DNA from: an uncultured Ignavibacteria bacterium
GTDB taxonomy: Bacteria > Zixibacteria > MSB-5A5 > SM1-73
Assembly: GCA_964631815.1 (NCBI GenBank)
Contig: CAZWAO010000001.1
Location: 1 to 49,512, forward strand
Reading direction: 5' to 3'
DNA: 49,512 nucleotides
Shown: positions 14,903 to 49,512 of the stretch, one piece after another
Numbering within the stretch: the first letter of the stretch is position 1
Layout: each line of letters opens with the position of its first letter
Notes under the pieces: model-generated
What the model saw: only the letters and a program-made list of their open reading frames with translations
What the model was told of the DNA's origin: nothing
The model's database searches: none
Position numbers and translations under genes: made by a program

Positions 14903-17893
14903 ATGCTTAAAGGAGAGCGAAGGATTTTTGTCCTTGTTTTGTCGGTCTGCCTGCTCCTGGTGGCCGAAGCGGCGTCGGGAGCAGCCATCAACAAGGATCA
15001 TGACTGGCAGATCATCCAAAACCGGCTGGCCGAATTTGAGCCTGCCGAGTCGGCAGTTGGGCCGGTGGTGAAAGACGGTCCCAAAGCTGGTGGAGACTTA
15101 ATCTGGTGGTTTCAGGGAATCGAAAACGTGGAATCCGTCTCGCCGTTTGTGGACGTGGACGGTGATGTGCTTCCGGACGTGCTGTTGGAAACCTACGATT
15201 CCGGCGCCCCGGCGGCAGATCACTTCTATTGCATCAAAGGGAACAGTCCCGGTTACGGCACGGTTCTTTGGTCCTGTCGGCCGGTGGGAGGACCGAGCAA
15301 CAGCGGCGGCTACGGCGATCAGTGCGTGTCCTATACCAGCGATCTAAACGGTGACGGGCATGCCGATGCTTTACTGGGCACGGCCTGGGGAGGCCGGACC
15401 GCGTATGGCATAGACGGCGTGAACGGAGGCACCATCTGGTCCTATGACACCTACGTGTACACTCCCTCCGGGTGGGTTTACAGCATCTGCCCCATCCAGG
15501 ATTTAAGCGGGGATGGTGTACCGGAGGTGGTCTTCGGGTGCGGCTCGGACGCCAACGCCGCTTACTGCGTCGACGGCACCAACGGCTCCTTGATCTGGAA
15601 ATTCCAGGCCAACGATGCGGTCTTTTCGGTGGCTGAGATCAGAGACGTGAATGGAGACGGGAAGAATGACGCTCTGGTGGGAACCGGCGATCCGGATGAG
15701 GATCGGCTGGTTTGCGTCTCCGGCGCCAGCTCGGGAAGCGCCACTTTAAGATGGCAAATCCACCTGGGGAACTCGGTGCATACCGTGGCAGCCATAGAGG
15801 ATGTCAACGGAGACGGAAAGCAAGACGCCTTGGCCGGCGTATGGGACGGAAGAGTGTATTGTCGAAGCGGCGTGGGTGGAGCCCATATCTGGAGCTACTA
15901 CGTGGGCGATTACATCATGCGGGTGGTCCCCATTGCCGACATCGATGACGACGGTATTCAGGACGTTCTCGTGGGATCCTGGGCTAATGCCATAATCTGT
16001 CTCTCCGGAGTGGATGGGTCCTTAATCTGCCGGTACACCGTGGGAACTCTTAACGGAGGGGACGTGTGGAGCGTGGATGCCATGGGTGACGTGAACGGTG
16101 ACGGCTATCCTGAGGCTTTGGGAGGATCGTTCGACTACAATGTGTATTGCGTTGACTTGAGACAGTGCGACACCCTCTGGACATACTACACCGGAAACCG
16201 CCTGTATACGGTCAGAGGTTTGCCGGATGTGAATGGCGACAATACCCCCGACGCCCTGGCCGGAACCCAGATGCTCAGCTCGTCCGGAGGAAAAGCTTAC
16301 TGCATCTCCGGTGGTGCTCCGCTGGACACCCTGCCGAACATCGTCAGCACCTGGCCCACGCAGAACCAATTGAACGTCCCCATCGACGCCGACATTTCGG
16401 TGACCTTCGATGTGCCCATGGATGAAACCACCATCAACAGCTCCACCTTGGTGGTCAACTCATGGTCCACCGGGCTTCATCAGGGAATCATCACCTACGA
16501 TGGCGGAACCAAAACGGCCACCCTGAATCCTTCGGTGGATTTCGATGAAGGGGAATTGGTAACCGTGGTACTCACCACGGGGATAGAATCGTTCTGGGGT
16601 ACTCCGTTGGAGAACAGCTACGTCTGGTCCTTCACTACCGAGGTCAGCGACGAAAGCCCCGGAACTTTCAGGCTGGATTCATCCTACACGGCGGGCGATA
16701 GCCCTTGGTCCATCTTCGCAGCCGACTTAAATGGCGACGGCGACGTGGACTTGGCCACCGCCAACGCCTACTCGGATAACATCTCAGTTCTATTGAACGC
16801 GGGGGACGGCACTTTTGCGGCTCACGTGACTTATCCGGTGGGCGACGAGCCCTGGTCGATCTTTGGAGGCGATCTTGACGGTGATGGAGACATAGACTTA
16901 GTGAGCGGCAGCATGGCCAACAACACGGTTTCGGTTTTGCTCAACAATGGAGACGGCACCTTTGCTCCCCAATCAACCTGCTTAGTCGGCACCAGCCCTA
17001 TCTGCGAATTTGCCGGCGATCTCGACGGCGATGGCGACCTGGACCTGGCAACGGCAAACGTATATTCCGACGACATCTCGGTCCTGTTGAACAACGGGGA
17101 CGGAACCTTTGCCGCGCAATCCCTCTATTCCGCCGGTGCGGGAAGCATGCCCGCATACGTCTTCGCGGCCGATCTTGACGGTGACGGGGATCTGGACCTG
17201 CAGACTTCCAACTACGGCACCTACGACGTTACGGTTTTGATGAACGACGGGCACGGCGCCTTCACCTTGTCGGCGCTCTATCCGGTAGGCGATCTTCCCT
17301 TGTCGGTTTTAGCCGCCGATCTGGATGCGGACGGTGACTTGGACTTGGAGACGGCCAATTGCTACTCCTACAATGTCTCGGTCCTCTTGAACAACGGCGA
17401 CGGCACCTTTGGCGCCCAGTCGGTCTATCCTGCTGGCACCAACCCGTGGTCGAGCTTCGCCGTGGACGTGGACGGTGACGGTGACCTGGACCTGGCCACA
17501 TCAAACGAGTATTCCAACGACGTCTACATTCATCTGAACAACGGGGACGGTACGTTCGTCGTCGATTCGATCTATCCGGTCGGCGATTACCCTTACTCCG
17601 TTTCTGCCGCTGACTTTGACGGCGACGGCGATCTGGACTTAGCGACCGCCAATCACGGCACCGACGACGTTTCGGTTCTGCTCAACTGCCTGTGCACCGG
17701 CAACGCCAACGGAGACGAGATAACGGACGTGGCGGACGCGATTTATCTTCTGAACTACCTTTTCAAGGAGGGACCAGCCCCCAGTCCGTTGTTGACCGGC
17801 AACGTGAACTGTGACGGTGTAGTGGACGTGGGAGATGCCATCTACCTTTTGAATTATCTGTTCAAGTCAGGTCCTCCGCCCAAATGCTGTTAG
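14903..17893 (+). CDS. Large secreted double beta-propeller (FG-GAP/VCBS-type) protein with an Ig-like domain and a C-terminal dockerin
   Basis: 996 aa. AGGAGG Shine-Dalgarno and a signal peptide (RRIFVLVLSVCLLLVAEAASGAA). Eight D[VLI]NGDG...YC[VI].G..G..[IL]W blades span about 15149-16320. The Ig-like module is at 16334-16639. Seven ~49-aa FG-GAP repeats and a dockerin follow. Confidence 0.9.
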   Translation: MLKGERRIFVLVLSVCLLLVAEAASGAAINKDHDWQIIQNRLAEFEPAESAVGPVVKDGPKAGGDLIWWFQGIENVESVSPFVDVDGDVLPDVLLETYDSGAPAADHFYCIKGNSPGYGTVLWSCRPVGGPSNSGGYGDQCVSYTSDLNGDGHADALLGTAWGGRTAYGIDGVNGGTIWSYDTYVYTPSGWVYSICPIQDLSGDGVPEVVFGCGSDANAAYCVDGTNGSLIWKFQANDAVFSVAEIRDVNGDGKNDALVGTGDPDEDRLVCVSGASSGSATLRWQIHLGNSVHTVAAIEDVNGDGKQDALAGVWDGRVYCRSGVGGAHIWSYYVGDYIMRVVPIADIDDDGIQDVLVGSWANAIICLSGVDGSLICRYTVGTLNGGDVWSVDAMGDVNGDGYPEALGGSFDYNVYCVDLRQCDTLWTYYTGNRLYTVRGLPDVNGDNTPDALAGTQMLSSSGGKAYCISGGAPLDTLPNIVSTWPTQNQLNVPIDADISVTFDVPMDETTINSSTLVVNSWSTGLHQGIITYDGGTKTATLNPSVDFDEGELVTVVLTTGIESFWGTPLENSYVWSFTTEVSDESPGTFRLDSSYTAGDSPWSIFAADLNGDGDVDLATANAYSDNISVLLNAGDGTFAAHVTYPVGDEPWSIFGGDLDGDGDIDLVSGSMANNTVSVLLNNGDGTFAPQSTCLVGTSPICEFAGDLDGDGDLDLATANVYSDDISVLLNNGDGTFAAQSLYSAGAGSMPAYVFAADLDGDGDLDLQTSNYGTYDVTVLMNDGHGAFTLSALYPVGDLPLSVLAADLDADGDLDLETANCYSYNVSVLLNNGDGTFGAQSVYPAGTNPWSSFAVDVDGDGDLDLATSNEYSNDVYIHLNNGDGTFVVDSIYPVGDYPYSVSAADFDGDGDLDLATANHGTDDVSVLLNCLCTGNANGDEITDVADAIYLLNYLFKEGPAPSPLLTGNVNCDGVVDVGDAIYLLNYLFKSGPPPKCC
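16684..17689 (+). repeat. Seven tandem ~147-nt coding repeats (FG-GAP/VCBS blades)
   Basis: Repeated unit: P[WL]S.FAADLDGDGDLDLATAN..S[DN][DN][VI]SVLLNNGDGTF......YP.G. Confidence 0.85.
17699..17890 (+). other. Dockerin-type module (class 1), C-terminus of the 996-aa protein
   Basis: [64 protein letters not shown]: two Ca-loop plus helix segments. Confidence 0.8.
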
Positions 17894-18993: not shown

Positions 18994-20700
18994 ATGACCA
19001 AATGGACGATGTTCTGCTTGACCTGCGGGCTCATTTTAGTCGGTATGAGCGGCCGGGTTTTTGCCGCCGATCTTTCACGGGCGGTGATTTTGGACGTGCC
19101 GGATTCCAAAATCGAATCGCAGTTCGGGAAACTGCCTCCTTTGCAGCTTACTCCGCAGGATTTGGCCGGCATGGCCTCCTATCGATTCGAGGGCGACACT
19201 CTTAAAGTACTTGCCATCTTGGTGGAATGGGACAATCGACCTCATACCTATTCCCGGGAGACCTTCGACAGCCTCCTTTTTTCCAGGAATGTATTTCCGG
19301 GGGGTTCTCTGGCAGACTACTACTATGAGGTATCCTACGGACAGCTATGCGTCACCGGGCAGGTTCTGGAGTGGTATAACGCCGGATGGTATTACGACGA
19401 CTATTGGCTGGAGGATCTTTTTGCCGATCTGGACCCGGACATAGACTACTCTCAGTTCGATGGCGATCACAATGGCGACGTGGACGCCGCGGTCTTCATT
19501 CGCTCGGGCAACGGTGAGGAGGACTCGCAAGTCTCCTGGGATATCTGGTCTTATGCCATGGTTTACCCACCGGGTTCAGGCCCCGGACCATTCGACGGTA
19601 TGTACATACCCAGATGGAATACCTCCCCGGAGACACGACCGCTGCGGAATCCGGATAACCCCACACAGTTTTCCGGAGTCGACACGCTCAATCGGATTCG
19701 GGTATTCGCCCATGAAATGGCCCATTGTATCGGATTGCCGGACCTGTATGACTATGATGACAAGCTGGTGACCTCCACCTACTACACGCCCGATGACGAC
19801 AACGATCATCCCTATATGGATTGGTGTTTGATGGGATATTACGGCTACGGGCTGTTCTCCATCGGGACCGACATACCGGTTCATCTCTGCGGATGGTGCA
19901 AGAAGGAGATGGGATGGATCCAGCCGGTCGTGCTGACCGAGGGCACCTACCAGGATCTGGTGATACACAGCTTCGAGACGACCAACGACAGCTCCCTGTA
20001 CCTGATTCCGATAGATCCGGCCCAAGGTGAGTATTTCCTCTTGGAATACCGCAACCGAGTCTCCCCGGCCCAGTATGACAAGGTGGATTCCGACTTCAGC
20101 TGCTATTTCTGGCCGGATTTGGCCTATGGCTGCGATCCCTTAGACCGGGGGCTTCTGGTGACCCACGTTCACGACTCGCTGGGCGCATACTACTGGCGGA
20201 TAAACAGCGGCACGCCGGATCTCCCCCATTACACCGTGGCCGTGGAAGACGCAGGCTACAATCCCACACGGGACGTTTGGAGCAATCCGGAAGGGTTCGT
20301 CACCGACAGCGCCCAGTGGTGGTACCCGTACGAAACCAGGAAGGCAGCGGTGTTCTCAAGCGATGTATCAGGTCAGGAGACTTTTGGTCCCGAAACCTAT
20401 CCCAGCAGCGACGGATACTACAGCCCCACCGGAATAGTGGTCACCGTCGATTCTATGCTAAGCGACAGGCTTTATGCCTACGTCTACATCCCGTCGTCGT
20501 TCTCACTTGGCGATGCAAACGGCGATGAGGTGGTAGACCTTGAGGACGTGATCTTTCTGCTGAACTACCTGTTCAAAAACGACGACCCTCCCGACCCGTT
20601 GGAGGCGGGCGATGCCAACTGCAATGGCACGGTCGAGCTGGGGGATGCCATCTTTCTCTTGAACTATCTTTTCAGAAACGGCCCACATCCGAGCTGTTAG
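18994..20700 (+). CDS. Secreted M6-family (immune inhibitor A-like) metalloprotease with a C-terminal dockerin
   Basis: 568 aa. Signal peptide (FCLTCGLILVGMSGRVFA). LKVLAILVEWDN...GSLADYYYEVSYGQL...DGDHNGDVDA...VFAHEMAHCIGLPDLYD (HExxH plus the LPDLYD hallmark of the M6 domain). Confidence 0.85.
   Translation: MTKWTMFCLTCGLILVGMSGRVFAADLSRAVILDVPDSKIESQFGKLPPLQLTPQDLAGMASYRFEGDTLKVLAILVEWDNRPHTYSRETFDSLLFSRNVFPGGSLADYYYEVSYGQLCVTGQVLEWYNAGWYYDDYWLEDLFADLDPDIDYSQFDGDHNGDVDAAVFIRSGNGEEDSQVSWDIWSYAMVYPPGSGPGPFDGMYIPRWNTSPETRPLRNPDNPTQFSGVDTLNRIRVFAHEMAHCIGLPDLYDYDDKLVTSTYYTPDDDNDHPYMDWCLMGYYGYGLFSIGTDIPVHLCGWCKKEMGWIQPVVLTEGTYQDLVIHSFETTNDSSLYLIPIDPAQGEYFLLEYRNRVSPAQYDKVDSDFSCYFWPDLAYGCDPLDRGLLVTHVHDSLGAYYWRINSGTPDLPHYTVAVEDAGYNPTRDVWSNPEGFVTDSAQWWYPYETRKAAVFSSDVSGQETFGPETYPSSDGYYSPTGIVVTVDSMLSDRLYAYVYIPSSFSLGDANGDEVVDLEDVIFLLNYLFKNDDPPDPLEAGDANCNGTVELGDAIFLLNYLFRNGPHPSC
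20509..20697 (+). other. Dockerin-type module (class 1), C-terminus of the M6 protease
   Basis: GDANGDEVVDLEDVIFLLNYLFKNDDPPDPLEAGDANCNGTVELGDAIFLLNYLFRNGPHPSC. Confidence 0.8.
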
Positions 20701-22953: not shown

Positions 22954-23034
22954 TCAAGTTGCGTCGGGATATTGTTATCCCGACGCGAAATCAAAGTTGA
23001 GAGTGCATCGGGACTACAAAGTCCCGATGCAACA
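22954..23034 (+). repeat. Double-hairpin repeat element, copy A (81 bp)
   Basis: TCAAGTT-GCGTCGGGATA/TTGT/TATCCCGACGC-GAAATCAAAGTTGAGAGT-GCATCGGGACT/ACAA/AGTCCCGATGC-AACA. It has two perfect 11-bp stems and is repeated at 24544-24627. Confidence 0.85.
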
Positions 23035-23071
23035 GAGCCCCAGCCGTTTGGTGATCTTCCACGGAGGAAAC

Positions 23072-24364
23072 ATGAATAAGAAGTCGTTTTCATACCATAT
23101 AGGCACTGTGTTTTTCTGTCTGGGCTTTTTCTTTATGGCTTCTTTAGCGAATGCTGAGCCCATCATCGCCGATCACAACTCCGTCGGAGAGTTCGAGAAC
23201 ATCCCCGATTCGCTCATCCAAGCCATCGGAAGCGACTATCTGATCTTCTACGGACACACTTCTCACGGCAGCCAGATCGTGACCGGGATAAGTCTGCTCT
23301 ACGACGAGGATCCTTTCTACGACCCGCCGACATTCTACGAGTATGGGGACGACTTGGGAGGCACCGGAGACACATCCTGGGCACCTCCCACCAGGGCTTG
23401 GCTGAATTCGCATCCGGAGTATAACATGGTCATGTGGTCCTGGTGCGGCGGCTGTTCCGACAATACGGAGCAAGGTATAAACATATATCTTGATGCGATG
23501 AACGGGCTGGAGCAGGACTATCCCGGCGTCAGATTCATCTACATGACCGGTCACTTGGACGGCAGTGGCCCGGAAGGTAATCTTTACGCCAGGAATAATC
23601 AGATTCGGGACTACTGCCTGGCAAACGACAAAACCCTCTTCGACTTCGCGGATATTGAAAGCTACGATCCTGATGGCAATTATTACCCCGATGCCAGCGA
23701 TGCCTGCGAATGGTGCTACGATTGGTGTGCGCTCTATCCTTGCCCCTCTTGCGGCTGCGCTCACTCTCACTGCTTCAACTGCTACCAGAAGGGAGAGGCC
23801 TGGTGGTGGATGATGGCCCGAATCTCCGGCTGGAATCCGGAGTTGGATTCTATTCCGGAAGTCGTGAGCACTTCACCGGCAAATAACCAAATGAATGTGC
23901 CGGTGAACACGAACATTACGGTTACTTTCAGCATCGAAATGGACCAAACCTCGATTAACGATACCACGTTTGTGGTGAGCGCGGAGTCCAGCGGGATTCA
24001 TCCGGGAACGATAACCTACGACAGCCCGACCGAAACTGCAACCTTCGACCCGGACAGCAACTTCCATGAAAACGAGATGGTGAACGTGACGCTGACTGCG
24101 GAAATAGGATCATCCGAGGGGATTCCGTTGGACAGCAGTTACGCCTGGTCATTCACTACGAACATGGGAAGAGGGGACGTAAATGAAGACGGAATCGTGG
24201 ATATATCGGACGCAATCTTTCTGCTGAACTACCTCTACCGGAACGGCCCGGCCCCTGATCCCCTTGAAATCGGAGACGTCAATTGCGATGACCTGGCAGA
24301 TTTGGAGGACGCGCTCTATCTGATAAACTATCTCTTCAAAAACGGACCTTCGCCAGGTTGCTGA
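23072..24364 (+). CDS. Secreted protein: unassigned enzyme-like N-domain, Cys/His-rich knot, Ig-like domain and dockerin
   Basis: ATG 23072 is preceded by GGAGG. The ORF-track start at 22997 lies inside the hairpin repeat. Signal peptide (VFFCLGFFFMASLANA). The Cys cluster CEWCYDWCALYPCPSCGCAHSHCFNC is present. The Ig-like module (23852-24160) is homologous to 16334-16639. Confidence 0.8.
   Translation: MNKKSFSYHIGTVFFCLGFFFMASLANAEPIIADHNSVGEFENIPDSLIQAIGSDYLIFYGHTSHGSQIVTGISLLYDEDPFYDPPTFYEYGDDLGGTGDTSWAPPTRAWLNSHPEYNMVMWSWCGGCSDNTEQGINIYLDAMNGLEQDYPGVRFIYMTGHLDGSGPEGNLYARNNQIRDYCLANDKTLFDFADIESYDPDGNYYPDASDACEWCYDWCALYPCPSCGCAHSHCFNCYQKGEAWWWMMARISGWNPELDSIPEVVSTSPANNQMNVPVNTNITVTFSIEMDQTSINDTTFVVSAESSGIHPGTITYDSPTETATFDPDSNFHENEMVNVTLTAEIGSSEGIPLDSSYAWSFTTNMGRGDVNEDGIVDISDAIFLLNYLYRNGPAPDPLEIGDVNCDDLADLEDALYLINYLFKNGPSPGC
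24173..24361 (+). other. Dockerin-type module (class 1)
   Basis: GDVNEDGIVDISDAIFLLNYLYRNGPAPDPLEIGDVNCDDLADLEDALYLINYLFKNGPSPGC. Confidence 0.8.
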
Positions 24365-36679: not shown

Positions 36680-37675
36680 TCAATCCTGCTTTACATCATT
36701 CAAGAGTCGTTCTATGATGTCCAGCGTCCCTACTCCGTCAGCCTCGGCATTAAAAGAGGTGACGATGCGGTGCCGGAGAACCGGCCGGGCAGCGGCCCGG
36801 ACGTCTTCCACGGAGGGCGTGTATCTGCCGTCTAAGATGGCGCGCGTCTTGGCCCCCAAAATCATGTATTGAGAGGCGCGTGGTCCGGCACCCCAGTTGA
36901 CCCAGTTCTTGATGTAAGACAGGGAGTTGTTCTCATTCGGCCTGGTAGCCCGGGCCAGCCTGACTGCATAGGCCACCACGTGATCCGATACCGGCACCCG
37001 ACGGGCCAGCTTCTGAAGAGCAACTATCTCCTCCCCCCCCATGATCTTGCCCAGGTCCCAATCATAGGCGCTGGTGGTCGACTTGACTATGGTGCTCTCC
37101 TCTTCCTCGGAGGGATAGTCCACGTAGATGTTGAACATGAAACGATCCAACTGGGCTTCGGGAAGCGGATAGGTTCCCTCCAGCTCGATCGGATTCTGAG
37201 TGGCCAGAACGAAAAACGGCTCCGCCAGCTTGTAGGTTTCGCCTCCGGCGGTCACCTCGTGCTCCTGCATGGCCTGCAAGAGCGCGGCCTGGGTCTTGGG
37301 CGGCGTCCGGTTTATCTCGTCGGCCAGCACGATATTGGCAAAGACCGGGCCCTTGACGAACTTGAAGGTTCTCTCTCCAGTGGCACCGCCCTCCTGAATG
37401 ATCTCCGTGCCGGTGATGTCCGAAGGCATCAAATCCGGCGTGAACTGGATGCGGTTGAATTTCAGATCCAGAATCCTGGATATGGTGGATATCATCAGGG
37501 TTTTGGCCAGTCCGGGAACCCCGATCAAAAGACAATGACCGTTGGACAAAAGTGCAATCAGGAGCTCGTCGATCACCCGCTCTTGTCCCACGATCACCTT
37601 CTTGATCTCGTTTTTGATTCTGTTGCGAGCTTCGTTGAGCTTCTCTACCGCTTGCAGATCCTGTTTCTCCGCCAT
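36680..37675 (-). CDS. MoxR-family AAA+ ATPase
   Basis: ATG 37675 is preceded by AGGAGG. VIVGQERVIDELLIALLSNGHCLLIGVPGLAKT (Walker A), VLADEINRTPPKTQAALLQAMQE (Walker B / AAA_3). Confidence 0.92.
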   Translation of the reverse strand: MAEKQDLQAVEKLNEARNRIKNEIKKVIVGQERVIDELLIALLSNGHCLLIGVPGLAKTLMISTISRILDLKFNRIQFTPDLMPSDITGTEIIQEGGATGERTFKFVKGPVFANIVLADEINRTPPKTQAALLQAMQEHEVTAGGETYKLAEPFFVLATQNPIELEGTYPLPEAQLDRFMFNIYVDYPSEEEESTIVKSTTSAYDWDLGKIMGGEEIVALQKLARRVPVSDHVVAYAVRLARATRPNENNSLSYIKNWVNWGAGPRASQYMILGAKTRAILDGRYTPSVEDVRAAARPVLRHRIVTSFNAEADGVGTLDIIERLLNDVKQD

Positions 37676-37749
37676 GTTTTCCTCCTGAGTAGTCAATACT
37701 AATATACATTCGAAGCTTCAGGATAATTGAACCTTTTTTAAGAAATCGG

Positions 37750-38049
37750 GTGCGCGAATGCTCCCGCATGCGGCGAGTGTGGCAGGTCAAAATTTGCGAC
37801 AGCTGGGGCACAGTAACTTGGCCGAATGAAACCCGGCAGTTCGTCTATTTCATCCATCGGGATGCCAACGGAAACGGGTCGATCAACCTGGAAGATGCGA
37901 TTTGTCTTCTCAACTATCTATTCAGAAACGATGACCCTCCAGATCCTCTGGGAGCGGGGGATGCCAATTGTGATGGAATAGTCGAACTGGGTGACGCCAT
38001 CTACCTGCTGAACTATCTGTTCAAGGGCGGAGACCCGCCCGAGTGTTAG
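37750..38049 (+). pseudogene. Orphan dockerin-only ORF (93-99 aa, no signal peptide): either a gene remnant or a stand-alone dockerin
   Basis: The C-terminal 63 aa (37858-38046) read [63 protein letters not shown], about 70% identical by eye to the M6 protease dockerin. The N-terminal 30-36 aa have no signal peptide or recognisable domain. Start candidates are GTG 37750 or ATG 37768, without a clear Shine-Dalgarno. Confidence 0.5.
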
Positions 38050-38279: not shown

Positions 38280-39743
38280 CTATTTCTTCTTTTCCGGCTC
38301 CGGTATTTCCTCCTCTATACCCGCAAGTTTTCTGGCAAGCTCCGCCTTGTCCTCCAATTTCGCCTGGGCGCGTATCACCAGCTTGGCCCCGTCCGGCGAG
38401 CCTCCGCCGTGCATGCATCCGGGAACTCCCGGCCCGATGGTGAACCACTCCACCAGTCGAGCTGCTCTGGCACGAGCCTCAGCCGAGGATTTGGCTTTGA
38501 GATACTTCTTGACCAGATGCCCGTATTTCTCATCCTCGAAATCCACCCACGACGGCAAACAGCCGGTCTCGGCAATGCCGCCGGAGATATCCTGCGCCAG
38601 AACCGAGGTCTCATAGGGCAAAGTGGCCACGTGTACTTTGTTCACGTTGGAGAGCAAGGGGTCGGGCTGCCACACCCCGGAAGGATGTTTCCTTCCCAGA
38701 GTGGCTGCAGCTACTCCCATTCCGAAGGTGGTCTCGTTGTTGATCACCATCCTGGTCAGCTTGTCGGAGAATGGCTTGATCGAGAGTCCGTTGGATCTTG
38801 CCACCAGCATGGCCCCTCCCACCTTCACATCCCCCTGCCCTGCCACGCAGCCGCCGATGGCGGTCCGATAAGGCATGATGAAATTCAAAACCGCGCTTAA
38901 GCTGTATTTGAACTCGCCGCACATAAAAACCCGCTCGTTGGGCACGAACACATCCTCGAAGAAGAGATAAGCCTGGGTGATGCCGCCTTTCTTCACCGGA
39001 ATATCGAAACCTTCCTCTTCCTCGCGGGTATCGGACGGACGGCGCGTCTCCACGATGTAAAGCCCTTTGGTGTCCCGCGGTATGACGAAGCTGATGGACC
39101 AGTCCTTATCCGGTTCTTTGTATCCGGAGCCGGGAAGGACGAAAATCTCGTTGGACGCGGCCACGCCGCAGATCATCACCTTGGCGCCTTTGACCACGAT
39201 GCCATCCGGCCTTTTCTCCACCAAGTGCAGGTTCATGTCCGGGTCTTCCTGCTGGGAGGGCGTTTTGGTCCGGTCGCCTTTGGGATCGGTGAGGGCGCCG
39301 GAGATGGAGATGTCGTTCTTTTGCGCCTGGATCAACCATTTCTTCAGCCTCTCATGGTAGTCCGTTCCCAACTCCTGGTCCATATCGTAGGTGGTGGCCC
39401 ACATGGCATTGATGCAGTTCCAGCCCACGCACCTTCCCCCGGTACAGGTGCCGGTTAAGTTGAACATCAATCGCTTCATCTTGCAGTTGGCCACCATATC
39501 CTCGGCACTCTGGATGACGGACAGATAGCGAGATATCTTCTCTCCGGTCAGGTGTGAGGTGGTGGTCATCAGGTCCTGAATCTTGGAATCATGTTGAGCC
39601 GCATATATCTGCGCATGCCCTTCCACCGTCAATTTGGTGGCCGGATTGCTGGTCACGTCTTCGATCAGCTTGCCGAATTTATAGACGTTCGGCCGCATCT
39701 TTCTCAGACTCTCCTTGTATTGCTCCACGGTTCTTAGTGCCAT
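38280..39743 (-). CDS. abfD: 4-hydroxybutyryl-CoA dehydratase / vinylacetyl-CoA delta-isomerase family protein
   Basis: 487 aa. Full-length resemblance to AbfD/HpaB-fold enzymes: RTVEQYKESLRKMRPNVYKFGKLIEDV, cysteine cluster TGTCTGGRCVGWNC, GGCVAGQGD, and ...CMHGGGSP near the C-terminus. Confidence 0.88.
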   Translation of the reverse strand: MALRTVEQYKESLRKMRPNVYKFGKLIEDVTSNPATKLTVEGHAQIYAAQHDSKIQDLMTTTSHLTGEKISRYLSVIQSAEDMVANCKMKRLMFNLTGTCTGGRCVGWNCINAMWATTYDMDQELGTDYHERLKKWLIQAQKNDISISGALTDPKGDRTKTPSQQEDPDMNLHLVEKRPDGIVVKGAKVMICGVAASNEIFVLPGSGYKEPDKDWSISFVIPRDTKGLYIVETRRPSDTREEEEGFDIPVKKGGITQAYLFFEDVFVPNERVFMCGEFKYSLSAVLNFIMPYRTAIGGCVAGQGDVKVGGAMLVARSNGLSIKPFSDKLTRMVINNETTFGMGVAAATLGRKHPSGVWQPDPLLSNVNKVHVATLPYETSVLAQDISGGIAETGCLPSWVDFEDEKYGHLVKKYLKAKSSAEARARAARLVEWFTIGPGVPGCMHGGGSPDGAKLVIRAQAKLEDKAELARKLAGIEEEIPEPEKKK

Positions 39744-43551: not shown

Positions 43552-44954
43552 TGGACCCCAAAGAGAGACTTAAGATACCGCGGCAGAAGATGCCGGAGCA
43601 AAGCCCCCAGGAAAGGGTCAAGAATTTCAAGGAGGTTCCCCTGGGTCTTACTCCCGATCTGGCCAAAAAAGAAGCCCAGAGGTGTCTGCAGTGCAAGAAA
43701 GCGGTTTGCGTGGCCGGCTGTCCGGTGGAGGTGAACATCCCCGCGTTCGTGCGTCTGATCTCCGAGGGCGATTTCGTGGGGGCGGCGAAGGAGCTGAAGA
43801 AAACCAACAGCTTGCCTGCGATTTGCGGAAGGGTTTGTCCCCAGGAAACCCAGTGCGAATGGCTCTGCACCCTGGGGAAGAAATACAAACCGGTGGCCAT
43901 CGGCGCCCTGGAGAGGTTCGCAGCGGACTACGAGAGGGAAACCGGCAAAGTTGAGATTCCCAAGGTGGCGCCACCCACCGGAAAGAAGGTGGCCGTGGTG
44001 GGCTCCGGGCCTGCAGGTTTGACCGTGGCCGGCGATCTGATCAAGCTGGGACACCAGGTTACGGTTTTCGAGGCGTTGCATAAGACCGGCGGGGTCTTGG
44101 TCTATGGGATACCGGAATTTCGACTACCCAAGACCATCGTTCAGGCCGAGGTGGATTACGTGGAGAAGCTGGGGGTTGAAATCAAGACCAGCTTTGTCGT
44201 GGGGAAACTGTGGACCATTGATGAGCTGTTCGAAGAGGGGTATCATGCGGTTTTCATCGGGACCGGAGCCGGACTTCCGAACTTCATGCACATTCCGGGT
44301 GAGAATTTAAACGGCATCTATTCCGCCAACGAATACCTCACCCGATCCAATTTGATGAAGGCTTACAACTTCCCCGAGTCGGACACGCCCATCTTTTCGG
44401 GAAAGAACGTCGCCGTCTTGGGTGGTGGAAACACGGCCATGGACTCGGTGCGCACCTCGTTGCGGTTGGGCGCAGACAACGCTTACATCGTTTATCGCCG
44501 CTCCAAAGCCGAGATGCCCGCACGAATAGAGGAAATCCACCATGCGGAGCAAGAGGGAGTGCAGTTCCATTTCCTTACCACTCCCATAAAGTACAACGGA
44601 AACCAGGACGGATGGGTGACCTCCATGGAATGCCTGCGCATGGAGCTGGGCGAGCCGGATGCCTCCGGCAGAAGGCGGCCGGTTCCCATCGAAGGCTCCA
44701 ACTTCACCATGCAGGTGGACACGGTGGTGGTGGCCATCGGCAACAGCTCCAATCCGCTGATACCCCAAACCACGCCCGGTCTGCAGGTGAACAAGTGGGG
44801 CAACATCCTGGCCGACGAGGACACCATGAAAACCTCTCGGGAGGGGGTGTGGGCCGGAGGCGACATCGTCACCGGCGGGGCCACCGTGATTTTGGCGGCC
44901 GGTGCGGGCAAGACTGCGGCCAAGGACATGCACCGCTATCTGATGAGCCTATGA
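43551..44954 (+). CDS. nfnB: NfnB/SudA/GltD-type NADPH-dependent oxidoreductase subunit (2x[4Fe-4S], FAD)
   Basis: ATG 43551 overlaps the nfnA TGA as TGATG. CLQCKKAVCVAGCP, CGRVCPQETQCE, VAVVGSGPAGL, VAVLGGGNTAMD. The ORF-track start at 43359 is an Arg/Gly-rich extension overlapping nfnA. Confidence 0.88.
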   Translation: MDPKERLKIPRQKMPEQSPQERVKNFKEVPLGLTPDLAKKEAQRCLQCKKAVCVAGCPVEVNIPAFVRLISEGDFVGAAKELKKTNSLPAICGRVCPQETQCEWLCTLGKKYKPVAIGALERFAADYERETGKVEIPKVAPPTGKKVAVVGSGPAGLTVAGDLIKLGHQVTVFEALHKTGGVLVYGIPEFRLPKTIVQAEVDYVEKLGVEIKTSFVVGKLWTIDELFEEGYHAVFIGTGAGLPNFMHIPGENLNGIYSANEYLTRSNLMKAYNFPESDTPIFSGKNVAVLGGGNTAMDSVRTSLRLGADNAYIVYRRSKAEMPARIEEIHHAEQEGVQFHFLTTPIKYNGNQDGWVTSMECLRMELGEPDASGRRRPVPIEGSNFTMQVDTVVVAIGNSSNPLIPQTTPGLQVNKWGNILADEDTMKTSREGVWAGGDIVTGGATVILAAGAGKTAAKDMHRYLMSL

Positions 44955-45084: not shown

Positions 45085-45127
45085 AAAAGACCGGAGCGAC
45101 CCGCAGGTCGCTCCGGTTTTCTTTATT
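45085..45127. terminator. Bidirectional rho-independent terminator between nfnB and the C1 peptidase gene
   Basis: CCGGAGCGACC-CGCA-GGTCGCTCCGG (45091-45116) is flanked by AAAAGA upstream and TTTTCTTTATT downstream. Confidence 0.7.
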
Positions 45128-45149: not shown

Positions 45150-47621
45150 TTACGGATTGCCAGGCGCAGGCCCGTTTTTGTAAAGGTAATTGAGCAGGTA
45201 AATCGAGTCTCCTATGTCCACCATACCATCCAAGTTCACGTCTCCACAGGAAGTGATGGGATCACATTGCGGAGGTGTGCCGCTCTTGTATAGATAGTTG
45301 AGCAGGTAAATGGCATCGCCCACGTCCACAGCCCCATCGCCGGTGGCATCGCCGCACACGGACTCGCATTCCCATATCCAGACATGGAAGTCGTCCACGC
45401 CGGCTTCCACCACAGAGCCGGTGCCCAAATCCGAGGCCTCGAAGCGAACCCTGACTTGATCGGTCAAAGTGACGACATGCCCGACCCAAAGATCGTATTG
45501 GCTCCAGCCCGGAGAGGTCTCGGGTCCAATGGTCTTGGCCTGGGTCCAGTTGGTCCCGTCGTCGCTGGACAAATAGACCTTGAAGACATCCTCCGCCTTG
45601 GTGGAAGTATTTTGGATGCCCGCGTAGGCAGGAAAGCTGTCCGGGTCCTGTCCGGAGTCATTGGTATACCAGAGAGCGAAGTGGATTCTGGCATCGCTTC
45701 CCTCGCTTAAGTCCAAGGTCGGGGAGATCAGCCGGGTGGCCCCGCCGTCCACGTCCGAATTGCCGTCGACGTTGTCCGTGAGATAGCAGCAGCCGGAGCC
45801 GTCGAAATCGGCAGGCGGGTCGCCCCTGTCGCCGCCTCCCACGGGAACACCGCGCTCCCAGGCACCGGAGGTTAGATAGGGATCGTTTTCCACGGTCCAA
45901 CCCGAATTGGTCTCGAAGTCGTCGGCGAACATGGAGGTAAGCATCCCCACCAGCGAAGAGTAGACTATGGAAGGAGCATATGGCGGATCGTAGACTTCGC
46001 CCGCCAGAGATGCCTGGGCGCTGAAGTAGAATTGAGGCGTCACCCCACAGCCGGCCCCCGGAAGCGTAGCCTCATATAGATCGCCGCCCAGCGATGTCAA
46101 CGGCGCGGAGATGTAAGAGCCGCCTTGATAGCGGTAGTGAAGCATCTCCGTGCCCGGGATGAGAGAATCGTCTTCGTCGCGGATCCGCACCTGAACGCTG
46201 GTGGGAGTGCCCGGCACTAAGAATTCGGGCAAACCATCGGGATAGTCGAAGTTCAAGGGGGTTTCCAGCCGGCTCAGTCCCTTCATGCAGAAGTTCGCCG
46301 TGCCGGTCCAGGGCGGGTCGTCAAAATCCTGCAGGTCGATCCAGACCCCATCCTGGCGATAGTAACTCTGTCCAGGCCTGGCGGAGGACTCCACAATGGT
46401 GCGATACTTGGCGCCTAAAAGCACGGGAACGTCCGAGGTCCGGTCATAGGGCTGACCGCCGTCCGACAGGTACAGGTAGACATAGAAATCCTGGTGGGCT
46501 TGCAGGGGAATAGGTGTATCCAGGTCGATGGTGTGAAATCCGGTGTACTGAATGAATCCCGATTTGGTGGAAAGCACGTCCGTCAACCCACCGCCATCAA
46601 AGCCACCGAATACCGTGACCGTGTAATCGACGTTGTCCGCGGCGGTGAAGAAACTGACGGCCCTCAGCACCTCCTGACCCTTCCCCCCACCCTGGGCCGT
46701 GAAGGCATTGAATGCCTCCAGGCAATCCTGCTTGGTGTCACGCCAGCCGTGGTAATCGTGATAATACACCCGATCGTACGACATGGGCTCGACGTTGTGA
46801 AGAGAGACCGCACCCATCTGGGGATCCTGACAACTGTACTTATCATAGTAGGATATCCAGAAGTAGCCGTTCAAGCACCAACCTTCTCCCCAGGAATTCT
46901 TGACCAACCAGGCGCCCCGCTGGGGAGCCTGGGTCTGTTTGTTGTCGTCCCAGCCGATGATGGTCACCGCATGATTCGGCTCCGAGCTACTGGAAGCCGG
47001 CTGGTAGTGGCAGCAGTTGGACATGTACGAGCCGCTGTAGCATATGCAGGTGCCCATGGCCCCGTATGTCATGATTATTTCTTTGATGGTGTTGATGTTG
47101 GATAGGTCGGTTCCGGCCACGTACCATTCGACGTCCCGGGGGTAGTAATAATGGTAGGAGGTATCGTCTCTGGCCGGAGGATAAGTGAAAGACTGACCGT
47201 CTATGTCTCGCACCGCCCCCTCGCCCCGGCTTAGATAGGCCGAGGCCACTCGATAGTCTCCCCCCTCGTGAACCACCAACCCGCTGCCCGTGGGAGGGGT
47301 GATGTCATCGTTGTTGTTCTCGTTGAAGCCGTTCCACCAATCCAAATGATACTCCGCCAGGTTCGGCTCCCCACTTTCTCCCGCCGCCAGCCAGCCTCCG
47401 GTCATCAGGAGATTGCTCTCCATGGAGGCCATCACACCATGAGTCCAACAAGTGCCGCCCTGCTGGCTTTTGACGGAGGTCACGTAATTGACGCCTCCCA
47501 CGTCTCTGAGATCGAAAGAACTTGGCGGATCAGCCAGGGAGGCCGTGAAAGCACCGGCAGAAATCAGGCACGAGCATAGCAACGCCAGAAAAACGACCAA
47601 AGACCTTCTGCTTTGATTCAT
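45150..47621 (-). CDS. Secreted papain-family (C1) cysteine peptidase with beta-sandwich/MAM-like modules and a C-terminal dockerin (class 2)
   Basis: 823 aa. Signal peptide ([23 protein letters not shown]). Catalytic motifs [11 protein letters not shown] (Cys), [11 protein letters not shown] (His), [10 protein letters not shown] (Asn). The MAM/ConA-like region reads [14 protein letters not shown]...CCYLTDN.... Confidence 0.88.
45153..45356 (-). other. Dockerin-type module (class 2, Cys-bracketed)
   Basis: [68 protein letters not shown]. Confidence 0.8.
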
Positions 47622-47762
47622 CGAGGAACTCTCCTTTCGCGGGGTTGTACAGCAGGACCTATCATAGAAACAACCCGGGGGAAAAAACCGTTTTACTCTT
47701 CAGTTCGCTTTTCCATGCTAGGGGAAACAGCCGCCTTGTCGGACAGCGGCTCTTCTTATATC

Positions 47763-47790
47763 AATATAACCGGTTGGCTTGATTTGTCAA
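47763..47790 (-). promoter_or_regulatory. Sigma70 promoter TTGACA-N16-TATATT for the 45150-47621 peptidase gene
   Basis: Read on the reverse strand, ~140 nt upstream of ATG 47621. Confidence 0.5.
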
Positions 47791-47891
47791 GGAGTTAGCA
47801 GGTATGAGATTCCCGCTGTGCTGTTCCGATGACGGATCAACTCCGTTTTCTCCCCCTTTCAGAGGAACACGGGAAGTTGGCGCCAAGGCGC

Positions 47892-47926
47892 AAAAAAAGC
47901 AGGGTCGATTCCCGCATCGACCCTGC
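47892..47926 (-). terminator. Rho-independent terminator of the upstream C1 peptidase paralogue
   Basis: GCAGGGTCGAT-TCCCGC-ATCGACCCTGC is followed on the minus strand by TTTTTTT, 35 nt after the stop at 47960. Confidence 0.75.
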
Positions 47927-47959
47927 TTGTCGCATTCATCTACTCCAGGCTCTGCGCCC

Positions 47960-49512
47960 TCACCTGGGCGGGCTACCCGGAGCCGGTCCTGCTTTGAACA
48001 GGTAGTTCAGCAGGTAGATGGCATCGCCCATGTCCACCACGTCGTCTAAGTTCACGTCTCCGCAAAGGGTGATGGGCTGGCACGCCGGAGCGTCACCGTA
48101 CTTATACAGATAGTTCAGGATATAGATGGCGTCTCCGATGTCGACCAAGCCATCGCCGTCGGCATCGCCGCAGTTGGCGATGGGCGAAAATCCGGTGACC
48201 TGAATATCGTCGATGTTCCAACCGAAGGACTGCCACCCGCCGTCGGAGGTACCCATGGTCCATCTCAGATAAACCGTCGGTTGGTCATCCGCCAGCGAGG
48301 AGATGTCCAAGTCCATCTCGTGCCAGGCGTCGTCCACGATCTGATCGGGATTCTCCCAGACAGTGGTGAAGTTGATTCCGTCGGAGCTTACCCGAACCGA
48401 GGCATGATCGAAATCGGGGTCCTCTACTCCCAGCCAACGCCAGAATTTCAGATGTACGTTGAACAAACCGGTCAAGTCCAGAGCTCCGCTGGTCAGATGC
48501 TTCTCCGTCATGTTCTTGGGATAATCTCCCGAAAGGTTGTAACCATAGACATTGGTGCCGGTATAACCGCTGGTGGGATCCTGACCGTTGGCGCCTCCGC
48601 CCGTGGGCTGACCGAAAGCCCAATCCGGCTGAGCTGTCCAACCGGGATCGGTGTCTAAGGTCCATTGGTATGCCGCCGTGGGCGTCCCCACCGTCAGCAT
48701 CACCTGGCGGCTGTCGTCGCCCGCATGATCGGTCAGGTTGGTGAAATAGACGGTGGCGAAGTAAGCACCTTGCTGCAGAGTGGCTGCGTTGGCATTGATC
48801 TCCACGTTCACCTGGCCCGTCTCGTACACGTCCAGGGAGCCGGATACGTCGCCGGAGAGTGTAATCCAATCCGCATCCGCGGTGATCTCATAGCTCATGG
48901 TGACCGCGTTTTTATTCTCGAAGGTGTAAGGGCTGCTGGAGGGAGAGAACGGACCTCCCACCGGGCCTTCCGATTTGAAGTCGTCCTCGGGATCAACCCG
49001 CACGCCCCGATCCACGGTCAACGCCTTCATGCAGAAATTGGCCGTGCCGGTCCAAGGGGGATCGCTGAAGTCATGAAGATCCAGCCATGCGCCGCCCTGG
49101 CGATAGTAGCTCTCTCCGGGCCGGGCAAAGGACTCGACTATGGTGCGGTAGTGCGCTCCCAAAAGCACCGGAACGTCGGAAGTGCGATCATAGGGCTGTC
49201 CGCCGTCCGAAAGATACAGGTAGACGTAGAAGTCGTCGCCGGAGCTTAAGGCCACCGGAGTATCCAGGTCGATGGTGTGAAATCCGGTATATTGAATGGT
49301 TCCCGACTTGGTGGACAGCTCGTCTAAAAGCTCCCCTCCCTCGAAACGATCGTAGATCTCGACAGTGTAGCTGACGTTATCTGCCGCCACGAAGAAGCTT
49401 ACGGCCTGAAGCAGCTCATCGCTGCCCGCCTCGAACGCGTTGAAGGCCTCCGAGCAATCCTCTTTGGTGTCCCGCCATCCGTGGTAGTCGTGGAAGTAAA
49501 CGTGCTCGTATC
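47960..49512 (-). CDS. C1 cysteine peptidase paralogue (C-terminal ~517 aa in the window; the catalytic N-terminus is off the window end) with a class 2 dockerin
   Basis: The reading frame stays open past ORF-track ATG 49390 to the window edge: ..[47 protein letters not shown].. parallels [40 protein letters not shown] in the neighbour. A MAM/ConA-like region and a dockerin follow. Confidence 0.88.
   Translation of the reverse strand, partial: YEHVYFHDYHGWRDTKEDCSEAFNAFEAGSDELLQAVSFFVAADNVSYTVEIYDRFEGGELLDELSTKSGTIQYTGFHTIDLDTPVALSSGDDFYVYLYLSDGGQPYDRTSDVPVLLGAHYRTIVESFARPGESYYRQGGAWLDLHDFSDPPWTGTANFCMKALTVDRGVRVDPEDDFKSEGPVGGPFSPSSSPYTFENKNAVTMSYEITADADWITLSGDVSGSLDVYETGQVNVEINANAATLQQGAYFATVYFTNLTDHAGDDSRQVMLTVGTPTAAYQWTLDTDPGWTAQPDWAFGQPTGGGANGQDPTSGYTGTNVYGYNLSGDYPKNMTEKHLTSGALDLTGLFNVHLKFWRWLGVEDPDFDHASVRVSSDGINFTTVWENPDQIVDDAWHEMDLDISSLADDQPTVYLRWTMGTSDGGWQSFGWNIDDIQVTGFSPIANCGDADGDGLVDIGDAIYILNYLYKYGDAPACQPITLCGDVNLDDVVDMGDAIYLLNYLFKAGPAPGSPPR
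47963..48172 (-). other. Dockerin-type module (class 2, Cys-bracketed)
   Basis: [70 protein letters not shown]. Confidence 0.8.

Follow-up and report, generated by a model that had tools for sequence, protein, structure and literature searches.

To our knowledge, research on dockerins has dealt almost exclusively with the cellulosomes of Gram-positive bacteria, and the specificity of the characterised type I dockerins is carried by positions 10, 11, 17, 18, and 22 of each repeat. Among the papain-type peptidases, the cathepsins, like Cwp84 of Clostridioides difficile, have a propeptide of the papain type. Outside the Gram-positive bacteria, an analysis of Cloacimonadota has described dockerin-tagged peptidases together with a cohesin scaffoldin that bears a type IX secretion system (T9SS) domain (PMC8542988). 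The stretch of DNA considered here, referred to as the window, comprises the 49,512 nucleotides of contig CAZWAO010000001.1 (assembly GCA_964631815.1), whose host is an uncultured Zixibacteria-like bacterium of the Fibrobacteres–Chlorobi–Bacteroidetes (FCB) group. Two neighbouring genes at its far end, A and B, encode peptidases that end in dockerins, so that in this locus dockerins tag proteases in an uncultured FCB-group lineage.

We regard it as probable that genes A and B are tandem, separately transcribed, modular peptidases of subfamily C1A that differ through the exchange of a cassette and carry a surface-tethering dockerin, and that the cysteines of this dockerin are structural staples, of which different kinds are set on one scaffold. 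The two genes are ordinary members of a large, little-studied family, and the locus adds a new member to families that are already known. Those homologues that have names belong to Candidatus Zixiibacteriota, while some of the near assemblies are labelled 'uncultured Ignavibacteria', and the homologous proteins appear in the databases as 'lectin like domain-containing protein' or 'C1A family cysteine protease'. The coordinates of all features are collected in Table 1.

Domain organisation of genes A and B

The N-terminus of protein A reads as a Sec signal peptide, and conservation in the homologue alignment begins at D31. The catalytic domain seems to begin directly after the signal peptide, and no papain-type propeptide is detectable between the two. 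The domain matches PF00112 (Pfam, E 5e-15), and its catalytic residues Q53, C58 (GGTCWTHG), H217 (NHAVTIIGW), and N242 (KNSWG) are, together with W244, invariant in an alignment of 26 homologues, which bears out the intact context of the papain triad noted in the preliminary description of this DNA. By the order of the Cys, His, Gln, and Asn residues and by the context of the motifs, gene A fits peptidase family C1, subfamily C1A. The best solved relative of protein A is Cwp84 (4d59/4ci7; E 2e-19), which aligns over residues 47–449 and so spans both domains of the head; cathepsins L, K, and H are also found among the PDB sequence matches. The second domain of the head is a lectin-like domain of the Cwp84 type, for which PF18560 gives 83.7 bits (A) and 104.7 bits (B) at a cutoff of 27. 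This region had been described as about 125 residues, three quarters to four fifths identical between the two genes; the identity was well judged (77%), whereas the length was underestimated, the whole being a lectin-like domain of 167 amino acids. The head would cleave extracellular proteins.

The frame of gene B contains no upstream stop up to the end of the window, in agreement with the earlier view that the gene continues beyond it. As the window spans the entire contig, the gene was completed through its orthologue on a syntenic contig (L001), where protein A is 92% identical. This orthologue (L001:6410-8797) measures 795 amino acids and matches all 516 readable residues of B at 92% identity, so that gene B lacks about 279 N-terminal residues in the window. 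The concern that the second gene might have no peptidase domain is answered by the same orthologue, which carries Peptidase_C1 at residues 28–263 (Pfam, E 3e-23). Compared along their length, A and B form a mosaic. They are 68% identical in the peptidase domain (through the L001 orthologue) and 74% identical in the dockerin, but the intervening modules are about 20% (middle module) and 23–28% (MAM-like domain) identical. The middle modules have no detectable homology (hhalign probability 16%), whereas the MAM-like domains are homologous (hhalign 98.9%, E 1e-17). Of the roughly 200 unrelated residues reported earlier, about 113 are indeed unrelated, but the domain of about 170–190 residues that follows them is homologous in the two proteins.

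The middle and MAM-like modules form one of two fixed pairs in all 80 related loci surveyed, which were taken from species-representative genomes of several phyla. The type A pair consists of an Ig-like and a MAM-like module, and the type B pair of a BACON-like module and a distant MAM-like module. Both types occur behind the same head in Zixibacteria-like, Planctomycetota, Fibrobacteraceae, and Bacteroidales genomes, and the type A pair is found behind other heads too. In a neighbour-joining tree of the heads, the B-type genes of the window clade mostly cluster, and at greater depth the two types are interspersed. Identity of the B head is 72% with the A head encoded in the same genome and 72–74% with B heads from other genomes; because B heads are equally far from both, the difference between the genes is not a recent local event. 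A recent local duplication was rejected for this reason, the heads being no closer within than between genomes and both cassettes spanning phyla. By these comparisons both cassette types are old and widespread. The preliminary description had proposed a duplication followed by module replacement, which is supported in modified form: the sequences argue for an old tandem family with exchange of a whole two-domain cassette, and not for a single stretch replaced after a recent duplication. Paralogues A and B would differ because a whole cassette has been exchanged between an otherwise conserved head and tail, and the alternative cassettes would confer different substrate or surface binding on them. 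Three loci from metagenome-assembled genomes labelled Bacteroidetes, Bacteroidales, and Clostridia (L056, L065, and L067) contain open reading frames (ORFs) of about 1,500 amino acids with two full C1-peptidase and lectin-like heads each, a fused counterpart of the tandem-gene arrangement.

The middle module of gene A (113 amino acids) has no match in Pfam, and the fold of the type A cassette was approached through structure prediction. The AlphaFold2 model of residues 450–752 of protein A is all-beta, with a predicted local distance difference test (pLDDT) score of 83.9, and its best PDB match is the MAM region of human meprin beta (4gwm_A/4gwn_A; Foldseek, E 5e-7, 21% identity), followed by Eph ligand-binding domains, CBM4, and the Kgp K3 gingipain adhesin. 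The model also matches the region of the Ig-like domain of Porphyromonas gingivalis PPAD over 107 columns, with a root-mean-square deviation of 2.9 Å, a match that we attribute to the predicted Ig-like first module of the cassette. In sequence, the MAM-like domain of A reaches 16.8 bits against Pfam MAM (PF00629; E 0.006, cutoff 26.4), and that of B 20 bits against InhA-like_MAM (PF20773; E 5e-4, cutoff 26.9). A comparison of MAM-like profiles with PDB sequences gave only meprin beta for A, at E 0.14, and nothing for B, neither result being significant, so that the comparison by structure was needed. The A domain as modelled has a jelly-roll fold of the MAM type, and 'MAM-like' is the safe label, because the assignment is based on prediction and related jelly-rolls score similarly. 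The MAM/ConA-like region that had been recognised in both genes is thus upheld in its fold by the match of the A model to meprin beta, but in sequence score both domains stay below threshold. The middle module of gene B scores 29.6 bits against BACON_2 when scanned alone and 24.8 bits as part of the full protein, for a cutoff of 25.

C752, which ends the MAM-like domain of A, is assigned to that domain because it is nearly invariant jointly with C612. In the B-type MAM-like domains, a conserved pair of cysteines ('DCS' and 'YCGWN') occurs in 14 of 16 sequences; window B and its orthologue have neither member, a paired loss that suggests a disulfide in the relatives. Window B and the orthologue read 'DLT' and 'SFGWN' at these sites, and the MAM-like domain of window B is without cysteine.

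Gene B, whose stop codon lies at 47960, is upstream of gene A on the same minus strand. The genes had been credited with terminators of their own and the downstream gene with its own promoter, and this holds: terminator-like hairpins follow both B and A, and a promoter with 11 of 12 matches, about 140 nt 5' of the start codon of A, precedes the latter, with conservation in L001. In the alignment with this 92%-related contig, the stem of the gene B terminator is invariant while its loop has changed, and both hexamers of the gene A promoter are invariant, whereas the spacer from terminator to promoter has diverged far more. As stem and hexamers have been kept while the spacer diverged, the conservation pattern supports separate transcription of A and B. 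The leader of gene A (47622–47762, minus strand, about 140 nt) is about 95% identical in L001, which is above the conservation of the adjacent spacer; it has no Rfam match and an ordinary folding energy (z −0.15), on which grounds a riboswitch or attenuator was dropped as an explanation. The hairpin after gene A (within 45087–45120) is shared with a convergent NfnB/GltD-like (nfnB-like) gene that ends at 44954 on the plus strand.

Downstream, the synteny with L001 extends over an nfnB-like gene, an nfnA-like gene, and the genes for acetate kinase, 3-hydroxyacyl-CoA dehydrogenase, and an HpaB-family protein, all of which are kept. L001 carries three peptidase–dockerin genes in tandem, of which the B orthologue is the middle one. 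The third paralogue, upstream of the B orthologue (L001:2799-5903, 1034 amino acids), comprises in order a lectin-less C1 peptidase, a type A cassette, about 380 amino acids of unassigned sequence, and a class-1 dockerin, a class defined in the next section. The source genome of the window probably continues the array with a third paralogue past the end of the contig. Arrays of three to six dockerin-tagged genes in a row occur in related genomes, among them L003, L004, L005, and L006.

Dockerins and their cysteine classes

The C-termini of both proteins had been recognised as dockerins, and this identification is secure in Pfam: the isolated C-terminal 77–79 residues score 33.9 bits (A) and 34.3 bits (B) against Dockerin_1 (PF00404), above the cutoff of 22.9. 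Each contains two F-hand repeats in which every Ca2+ ligand position is filled (D-x-[DN]-x-[DN]-G-x-[IV]-x-x-x-D loops), and a profile of the two dockerins matches solved structures of Clostridium thermocellum dockerins at E 1e-8, the linker aligning without gaps. The AlphaFold2 model of the dockerin (pLDDT 88) has helices at segment residues 23–34, 46–49, and 59–70. In Foldseek, every match with a probability of at least 0.89 is a dockerin, and the best matches are type I dockerins, with template modelling (TM) scores of 0.75–0.85 to the target and deviations of 1.6–2.3 Å. Judged by sequence and model together, the C-termini of A and B are bona fide type I-like dockerins with a three-helix fold.

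The two dockerins differ in their cysteines from the four others encoded in the window. The first cysteine (C1) lies two residues before loop 1, the second (C2) in a 'PPxC' motif after helix 1, and the third (C3) two residues before loop 2; C2 and C3 are spaced C-x6-C within the linker between the repeats. We refer to the dockerins of A and B as class 2 and to the other four as class 1. The preliminary description held that the three-cysteine pattern is absent from the other four dockerins, and it is absent from all of them. The subtype bracketed by cysteines is thus distinct in its pattern, but the other four do not provide a cysteine-free contrast: they share a pair of their own, overlooked at first reading, which consists of a cysteine at position 4 of loop 2 (D-x-N-C-D/N) and a C-terminal cysteine. 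The class-1 linker is three residues shorter than that of class 2.

One of the four class-1 dockerins is an orphan, an ORF of at most about 92 amino acids when counted from the first Met, in which no signal peptide is obvious and which lies between a MoxR-like gene (36680–37696, minus strand) and an HpaB-family gene (38280–39743, minus strand). The corresponding gap in L001 is about 250 nt shorter and contains no dockerin. The orphan may represent the remnant of a gene or a mini-dockerin that stands by itself.

Cysteine statistics were drawn from 127 non-identical modules of homologues and loci. C2 and C3 are both present in 64 modules and both absent from 49, with one alone in only 10 and 4, and the C2/C3 pair and the loop-2 cysteine are mutually exclusive. 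Among the modules with a loop-2 cysteine, 29 of 30 have the terminal cysteine too. C1 behaves differently: 12 class-2 modules do without it, among them that of A's nearest orthologue (P0002, 92%), which has Ser in its place. A C-terminal cysteine (C4) occurs in class 2 only where C1 is present (15 modules as against 0). The loss of the cysteines from homologues had been named as a result that would speak against the subtype; homologues do conserve them, but covariation is confined to C2 and C3, and C1 is dispensable.

A dockerin-only protein search gave just 14 short fragments and was uninformative. A wider view was obtained by comparing the dockerin profile with 1.84 billion cluster representatives, of which 50,227 proteins matched at E ≤ 0.001, and by surveying the 548 modules in the best 149 of these proteins. 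Of 162 modules with C1, 156 also have C4, and cysteine counts of 0, 2, and 4 dominate. Class 2 is rare in this sample, with 7 of the 548 modules. Several proteins (P0255, P0256, P0259, and P0262) are made up almost wholly of 6–14 tandem dockerin modules. Each of the nine tandem modules in P0255 is bracketed by exactly C1 and C4 ('CGD...GPAPxC'). These poly-dockerin proteins could be connectors in a cohesin–dockerin network.

From these patterns, C2 and C3 most likely form a disulfide in the linker, which would close the segment between the two calcium-binding repeats. C1 is probably unpaired in the window dockerins, where it would be the leftover half of a widespread C1–C4 bracket joining the N- and C-termini of the module. 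The extra cysteines of class 2 are therefore most likely structural, forming a small internal staple and not a new docking code, and the dockerin classes would be alternative staple topologies on one scaffold and not alternative recognition surfaces. The disulfide-stapled variant suggested in the preliminary description remains the best reading, with the qualification that the other class appears to be stapled by cysteines too. Read against canonical dockerin geometry, the cysteine patterns of class 1 and of the four-cysteine modules were mutually inconsistent. As far as the literature showed, the cysteine-staple classes are an undescribed dockerin variant; our literature search returned nothing relevant on dockerins in Zixibacteria or on disulfide-containing bacterial dockerins.

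The C-terminal tag and the competing explanations

Of the 120 best homologues of protein A, 43 carry a class-2 dockerin at the C-terminus, 12 a class-1 dockerin, 7 another dockerin, and about 39 a tail resembling a T9SS C-terminal domain (CTD); no other part of the protein is as exchangeable as this tag. The T9SS CTD (PF18962) is absent from A and B according to Pfam, and is present in Bacteroidales homologues and in some homologues of 60% identity. In close homologues (P0096, P0108, P0111, and Bacteroidales matches such as P0010) the tag is swapped between a T9SS domain and a dockerin of class 2, class 1, or the C1+C4 type. A gingipain-family C25 peptidase (L010:4842-7091) ends in a class-2 dockerin, where the gingipains of P. 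gingivalis have a T9SS domain. The dockerin of A and B takes the place held by the T9SS CTD in the Bacteroidales homologues and would act as a Ca2+-dependent tag that tethers the peptidase to a partner on the cell surface, as proposed by analogy with the Cloacimonadota system (PMC8542988).

The cysteine pattern was at first taken to suggest a second docking specificity, in which class 2 (on Cwp84-like and C25 peptidases) and class 1 (on M6-like, FG-GAP, Big_5, and lectin-less C1 proteins) would bind different cohesin-like receptors and thereby sort the enzymes. Both classes do stand side by side on one contig, none of 117 dockerins on orthologues of the M6-like protease, which reach down to 57% identity, is of class 2, and the lectin-less C1 peptidases have class 1 in seven of seven loci while the neighbouring Cwp84-like genes have class 2; the three additional residues of the class-2 linker and a moderate class bias of Tyr versus Phe at the helix ends (columns 25 and 61) point in the same direction. 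However, when 112 class-1 modules were compared with 63 class-2 modules column by column, only the cysteine and linker positions discriminated the classes, with total-variation distances of 0.8–1.0, as against 0.40 or less at the canonical recognition positions. In a neighbour-joining tree with cysteines and linker masked, the classes interleave and the modules group by genome. The class-2 dockerins of the window are 62–64% identical to class 1 on the same contig, 57–61% to class 2 elsewhere, and 51% to class 1 elsewhere; this likeness across classes within a genome also holds in three other genomes, and identity between class 2 and class 1 within genomes (62–71%) exceeds same-class identity between genomes (51–61%). 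The dockerin of B is likewise nearer to that of A (72%) than to those of B orthologues (59–66%). In addition, some Cwp84-like orthologues carry class-1 or C1+C4 dockerins, and local, weak tests identified no cohesin at all in the window or related loci. The classes, which had been expected to segregate if they differed in specificity, instead intermix and cluster by genome; because they mix in the trees and are not told apart by the residues at the canonical recognition sites, the sequences do not support a second recognition code, which we consider unlikely. Even less probable is that the cysteines are unbonded, serving as free or metal-binding thiols (a redox switch or a metal site), or that C1 forms an intermolecular disulfide with a partner. 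Such an arrangement would suit an anoxic habitat, the neighbouring genes (acetate kinase, NfnAB-like genes, and 3-hydroxyacyl-CoA dehydrogenase) suggesting a fermentative anaerobe, and it would accommodate the three cysteines of both window dockerins, with gene B having no other cysteine downstream of its lectin-like domain. The cysteines nevertheless come and go pairwise (C2 with C3, C1 with C4 in the proportion given above, and the B-type MAM-like pair), even counts are enriched, and C1 is dispensable in close orthologues, which makes an essential covalent link through C1 unlikely. On this evidence an unbonded role is very improbable, and paired structural cysteines remain the preferred reading.

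A different objection concerns docking itself: the dockerin might be a calcium-stabilised signal for export, sorting, or surface anchoring, an analogue of the T9SS CTD that is read by a secretion or attachment machinery in which no scaffoldin takes part. Homologues of 60% identity, as well as gingipain-family and Cwp84-like proteins from other FCB lineages, have a T9SS CTD exactly where the dockerin sits here; a dockerin is also borne by many unrelated secreted proteins of this contig, and no cohesin was detected in the sequences searched. Dockerins without cohesins are reportedly present in many non-cellulolytic genomes, according to Peer et al. (2009). Yet the fold and Ca2+ ligands are canonical for type I dockerins, and both helices are conserved, near-symmetric, and co-evolving within genomes, which is how a surface that binds a protein should behave. 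Nor can every module be a terminal signal in the poly-dockerin proteins, where as many as nine lie internally, and a related phylum pairs dockerin-tagged peptidases with a cohesin scaffoldin that has a T9SS CTD (PMC8542988). A pure sorting signal thus seems decidedly unlikely, and a docking tag is preferred.

Several points weigh against the account of surface-tethering dockerins with structural staples. The window dockerins have an odd number of cysteines, and with three of them one thiol is left unexplained; the hosts are probably anaerobes, in which extracellular disulfides are less secure; and the class-1 pair (loop 2 position 4 and C-terminus) is hard to reconcile with canonical dockerin geometry. 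The class is also fixed within a protein family, as seen in the M6-like proteases and the lectin-less C1 peptidases, and this stability hints at a functional distinction that a pure stability staple leaves unexplained; the staple type seems to be under family-specific constraint. The neighbour-joining trees draw on about 54 columns and on sequences that are not independent. Finally, neither a cohesin nor a partner resembling a scaffoldin came to light in weak and local tests that covered the window and about 1.3 Mb of related loci: Pfam found no cohesin in eight window proteins, screening 157 large ORFs close to dockerin genes for self-repeats gave no internally repeated scaffoldin candidate, and a clostridial cohesin query had no match, although divergent cohesins would escape these tests.

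A broader proposal, which we put forward tentatively and hold to be doubtful as a whole, is that these modules represent a large, undescribed branch of dockerins that serves as a general surface-tethering tag for a secreted degradome of C1, C25, and M6 peptidases and adhesin-like proteins in Zixibacteria-like, other FCB, and Planctomycetota bacteria. In this proposal the tag would replace the T9SS CTD, it would come in several family-specific disulfide topologies (C2–C3, C1–C4, and loop-to-tail), and poly-dockerin proteins would act as connectors. If this is true, the topology, which is the same throughout an enzyme family even at long evolutionary distances, could encode more than stability, for example the order of assembly, resistance to the bacterium's own proteases, or redox-controlled release.

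Table 1. Features of genes A and B and the class-1 dockerins used for comparison (window coordinates; residues of B in fragment numbering).
Feature	Coordinates	Strand	Basis
Gene A, complete coding sequence (CDS), 823 aa, predicted secreted Cwp84-like C1 peptidase with C-terminal dockerin	45150..47621	-	ORF; Pfam Peptidase_C1, Lectin_like, Dockerin_1
Gene A putative signal peptide, residues ~1-29	47535..47621	-	read from sequence
Gene A papain-family catalytic domain, residues ~31-282	46776..47531	-	Pfam, PDB sequence matches
Gene A Cwp84-type lectin-like domain, residues 285-449	46275..46769	-	PF18560, E 2e-23
Gene A Ig-like middle module, residues 450-562, first half of type A cassette	45936..46274	-	model, Foldseek
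Gene A MAM-like jelly-roll domain, residues 563-752, second half of type A cassette	45366..45935	-	Pfam (weak), Foldseek
Gene A class-2 type I dockerin, residues 756-823	45153..45356	-	Pfam, AlphaFold2, Foldseek
Gene A dockerin cysteines C756 (C1), C786 (C2), C792 (C3)	45354-45356 (C1), 45264-45266 (C2), 45246-45248 (C3)	-	
Gene B, 5'-truncated at contig end, 516 aa readable	47960..49512	-	frame open to last base
Gene B lectin-like domain, residues 1-165	49016..49510	-	PF18560, E 7e-30
Gene B BACON-like Ig module, residues 166-278, first half of type B cassette	48677..49015	-	BACON_2
Gene B MAM-like domain, residues 279-446, second half of type B cassette	48173..48676	-	InhA-like_MAM (weak)
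Gene B class-2 dockerin	47963..48172	-	Pfam
Gene B dockerin cysteines C447 (C1), C477 (C2), C483 (C3)	48170-48172 (C1), 48080-48082 (C2), 48062-48064 (C3)	-	
Terminator-like hairpin after gene B, 13 bp GC-rich with T7, 32 nt past B stop	47897..47928	-	scan
Sigma-70-like promoter of gene A, TTGACA-16-TATATT, 11/12 matches	47763..47790	-	scan
Ribosome-binding site AAAGGAGAG, 5' of gene A start codon	47629..47637	-	read from sequence
Terminator-like GC-rich hairpin after gene A, T-runs on both strands, bidirectional	45090..45117	-	scan and sequence
Class-1 dockerin of FG-GAP/Big_5 protein (CDS 14903-17893), ends '...NVNCDG...PPPKCC', stop	17696..17890	+	comparison
Class-1 dockerin of M6-like metalloprotease (CDS 18994-20700), ends '...DANCNG...HPSC', stop	20506..20697	+	comparison
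Class-1 dockerin of Big_5 protein (CDS 22997-24364), ends '...DVNCDD...SPGC', stop	24170..24361	+	comparison
Orphan class-1 dockerin-only ORF, stop-to-stop 37693-38049	37858..38046	+	comparison

Comparison with described systems

The value of the locus itself is modest: two proteins known as 'hypothetical' or 'lectin-like' can be annotated as modular extracellular cysteine peptidases, and the exchange of cassettes in a tandem family is documented. If the staples are real, they would offer natural, ready-made stabilised dockerin scaffolds for protein engineering and a marker for dividing the proteins that these sediment bacteria secrete into classes. They would further show that one and the same head accepts either a T9SS signal or a dockerin, which bears on how Gram-negative bacteria display enzymes at their surface.

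For the head, the closest described protein is Cwp84 of C. difficile (PF00112 and PF18560), whose catalytic and lectin-like domains align with residues 47–449 of protein A and whose catalytic motifs are near-identical (NHAV.I.GWDDN and AWLVK.SWG). Cwp84 is likewise secreted and surface-associated, and processes the surface layer. Sequence identity is low, and the two differ at both ends: Cwp84 has an N-terminal propeptide and three CWB2 repeats that hold it in the Gram-positive wall, while the window proteins have no detectable propeptide and no CWB2 match in Pfam, and add Ig-like or BACON-like and MAM-like domains, followed by a dockerin. With neither propeptide nor CWB2, and with a C-terminus made up of cassette and dockerin, the window proteins share the core of Cwp84 but are not its orthologues.

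The dockerins resemble the clostridial type I dockerins, such as those of C. thermocellum Cel9D, Xyn10B, and Cel48S (4fl4, 1ohz, and 2mte), in their two 22-residue F-hand repeats with Ca2+ ligands, in the three-helix fold, and in the canonical length of the class-2 linker, and their two near-identical repeats recall the clostridial dockerins with a dual binding mode. They differ in their hosts, which are peptidases of a Gram-negative-type FCB bacterium and not glycoside hydrolases, in the helix signature 'D.(V/I)YL.NYL(Y/F)K.GP.P' with the proline-rich tail that follows it, and in the residues at C2 and C3, which are others in the aligned 4fl4 and 4dh2. In the literature, no described counterpart of the C2–C3 linker pair was found. 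The bracketing of the module does have a parallel in the clasp of the Ruminococcus flavefaciens ScaA dockerin, in which contacts between the N- and C-terminal flanks stabilise the module (PMC3821032); the C1–C4 bracket of the relatives would be a covalent version of this clasp. The ScaA clasp, however, is non-covalent, and the window dockerins are without C4 and have only C1 and the C2–C3 pair.

With respect to the tagged proteins, the nearest parallel is the complex, proposed to be cellulosome-like, of 'Ca. Stygibacter' (Cloacimonadota), a bacterium also of the FCB group, in which S8 and gingipain-like C25 peptidases and glycosidases with signal peptides carry C-terminal dockerins (PMC8542988); the Zixibacteria-like loci related to the window tag C1, C25, and M6-like peptidases. 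The two differ in that 'Ca. Stygibacter' has a scaffoldin of 3,755 amino acids with tandem cohesins and a T9SS CTD, while no cohesin was found in the sequences searched here, and cysteine classes are not discussed in that analysis. The T9SS cargo of Bacteroidota, such as the gingipains and PPAD, has a comparable plan of secreted hydrolase, Ig-like spacer, and C-terminal tag, in which the middle module of A resembles the Ig-like domain of PPAD and the MAM-like domain the jelly-roll of Kgp K3. The window proteins, in contrast, end in a dockerin and not in a CTD.

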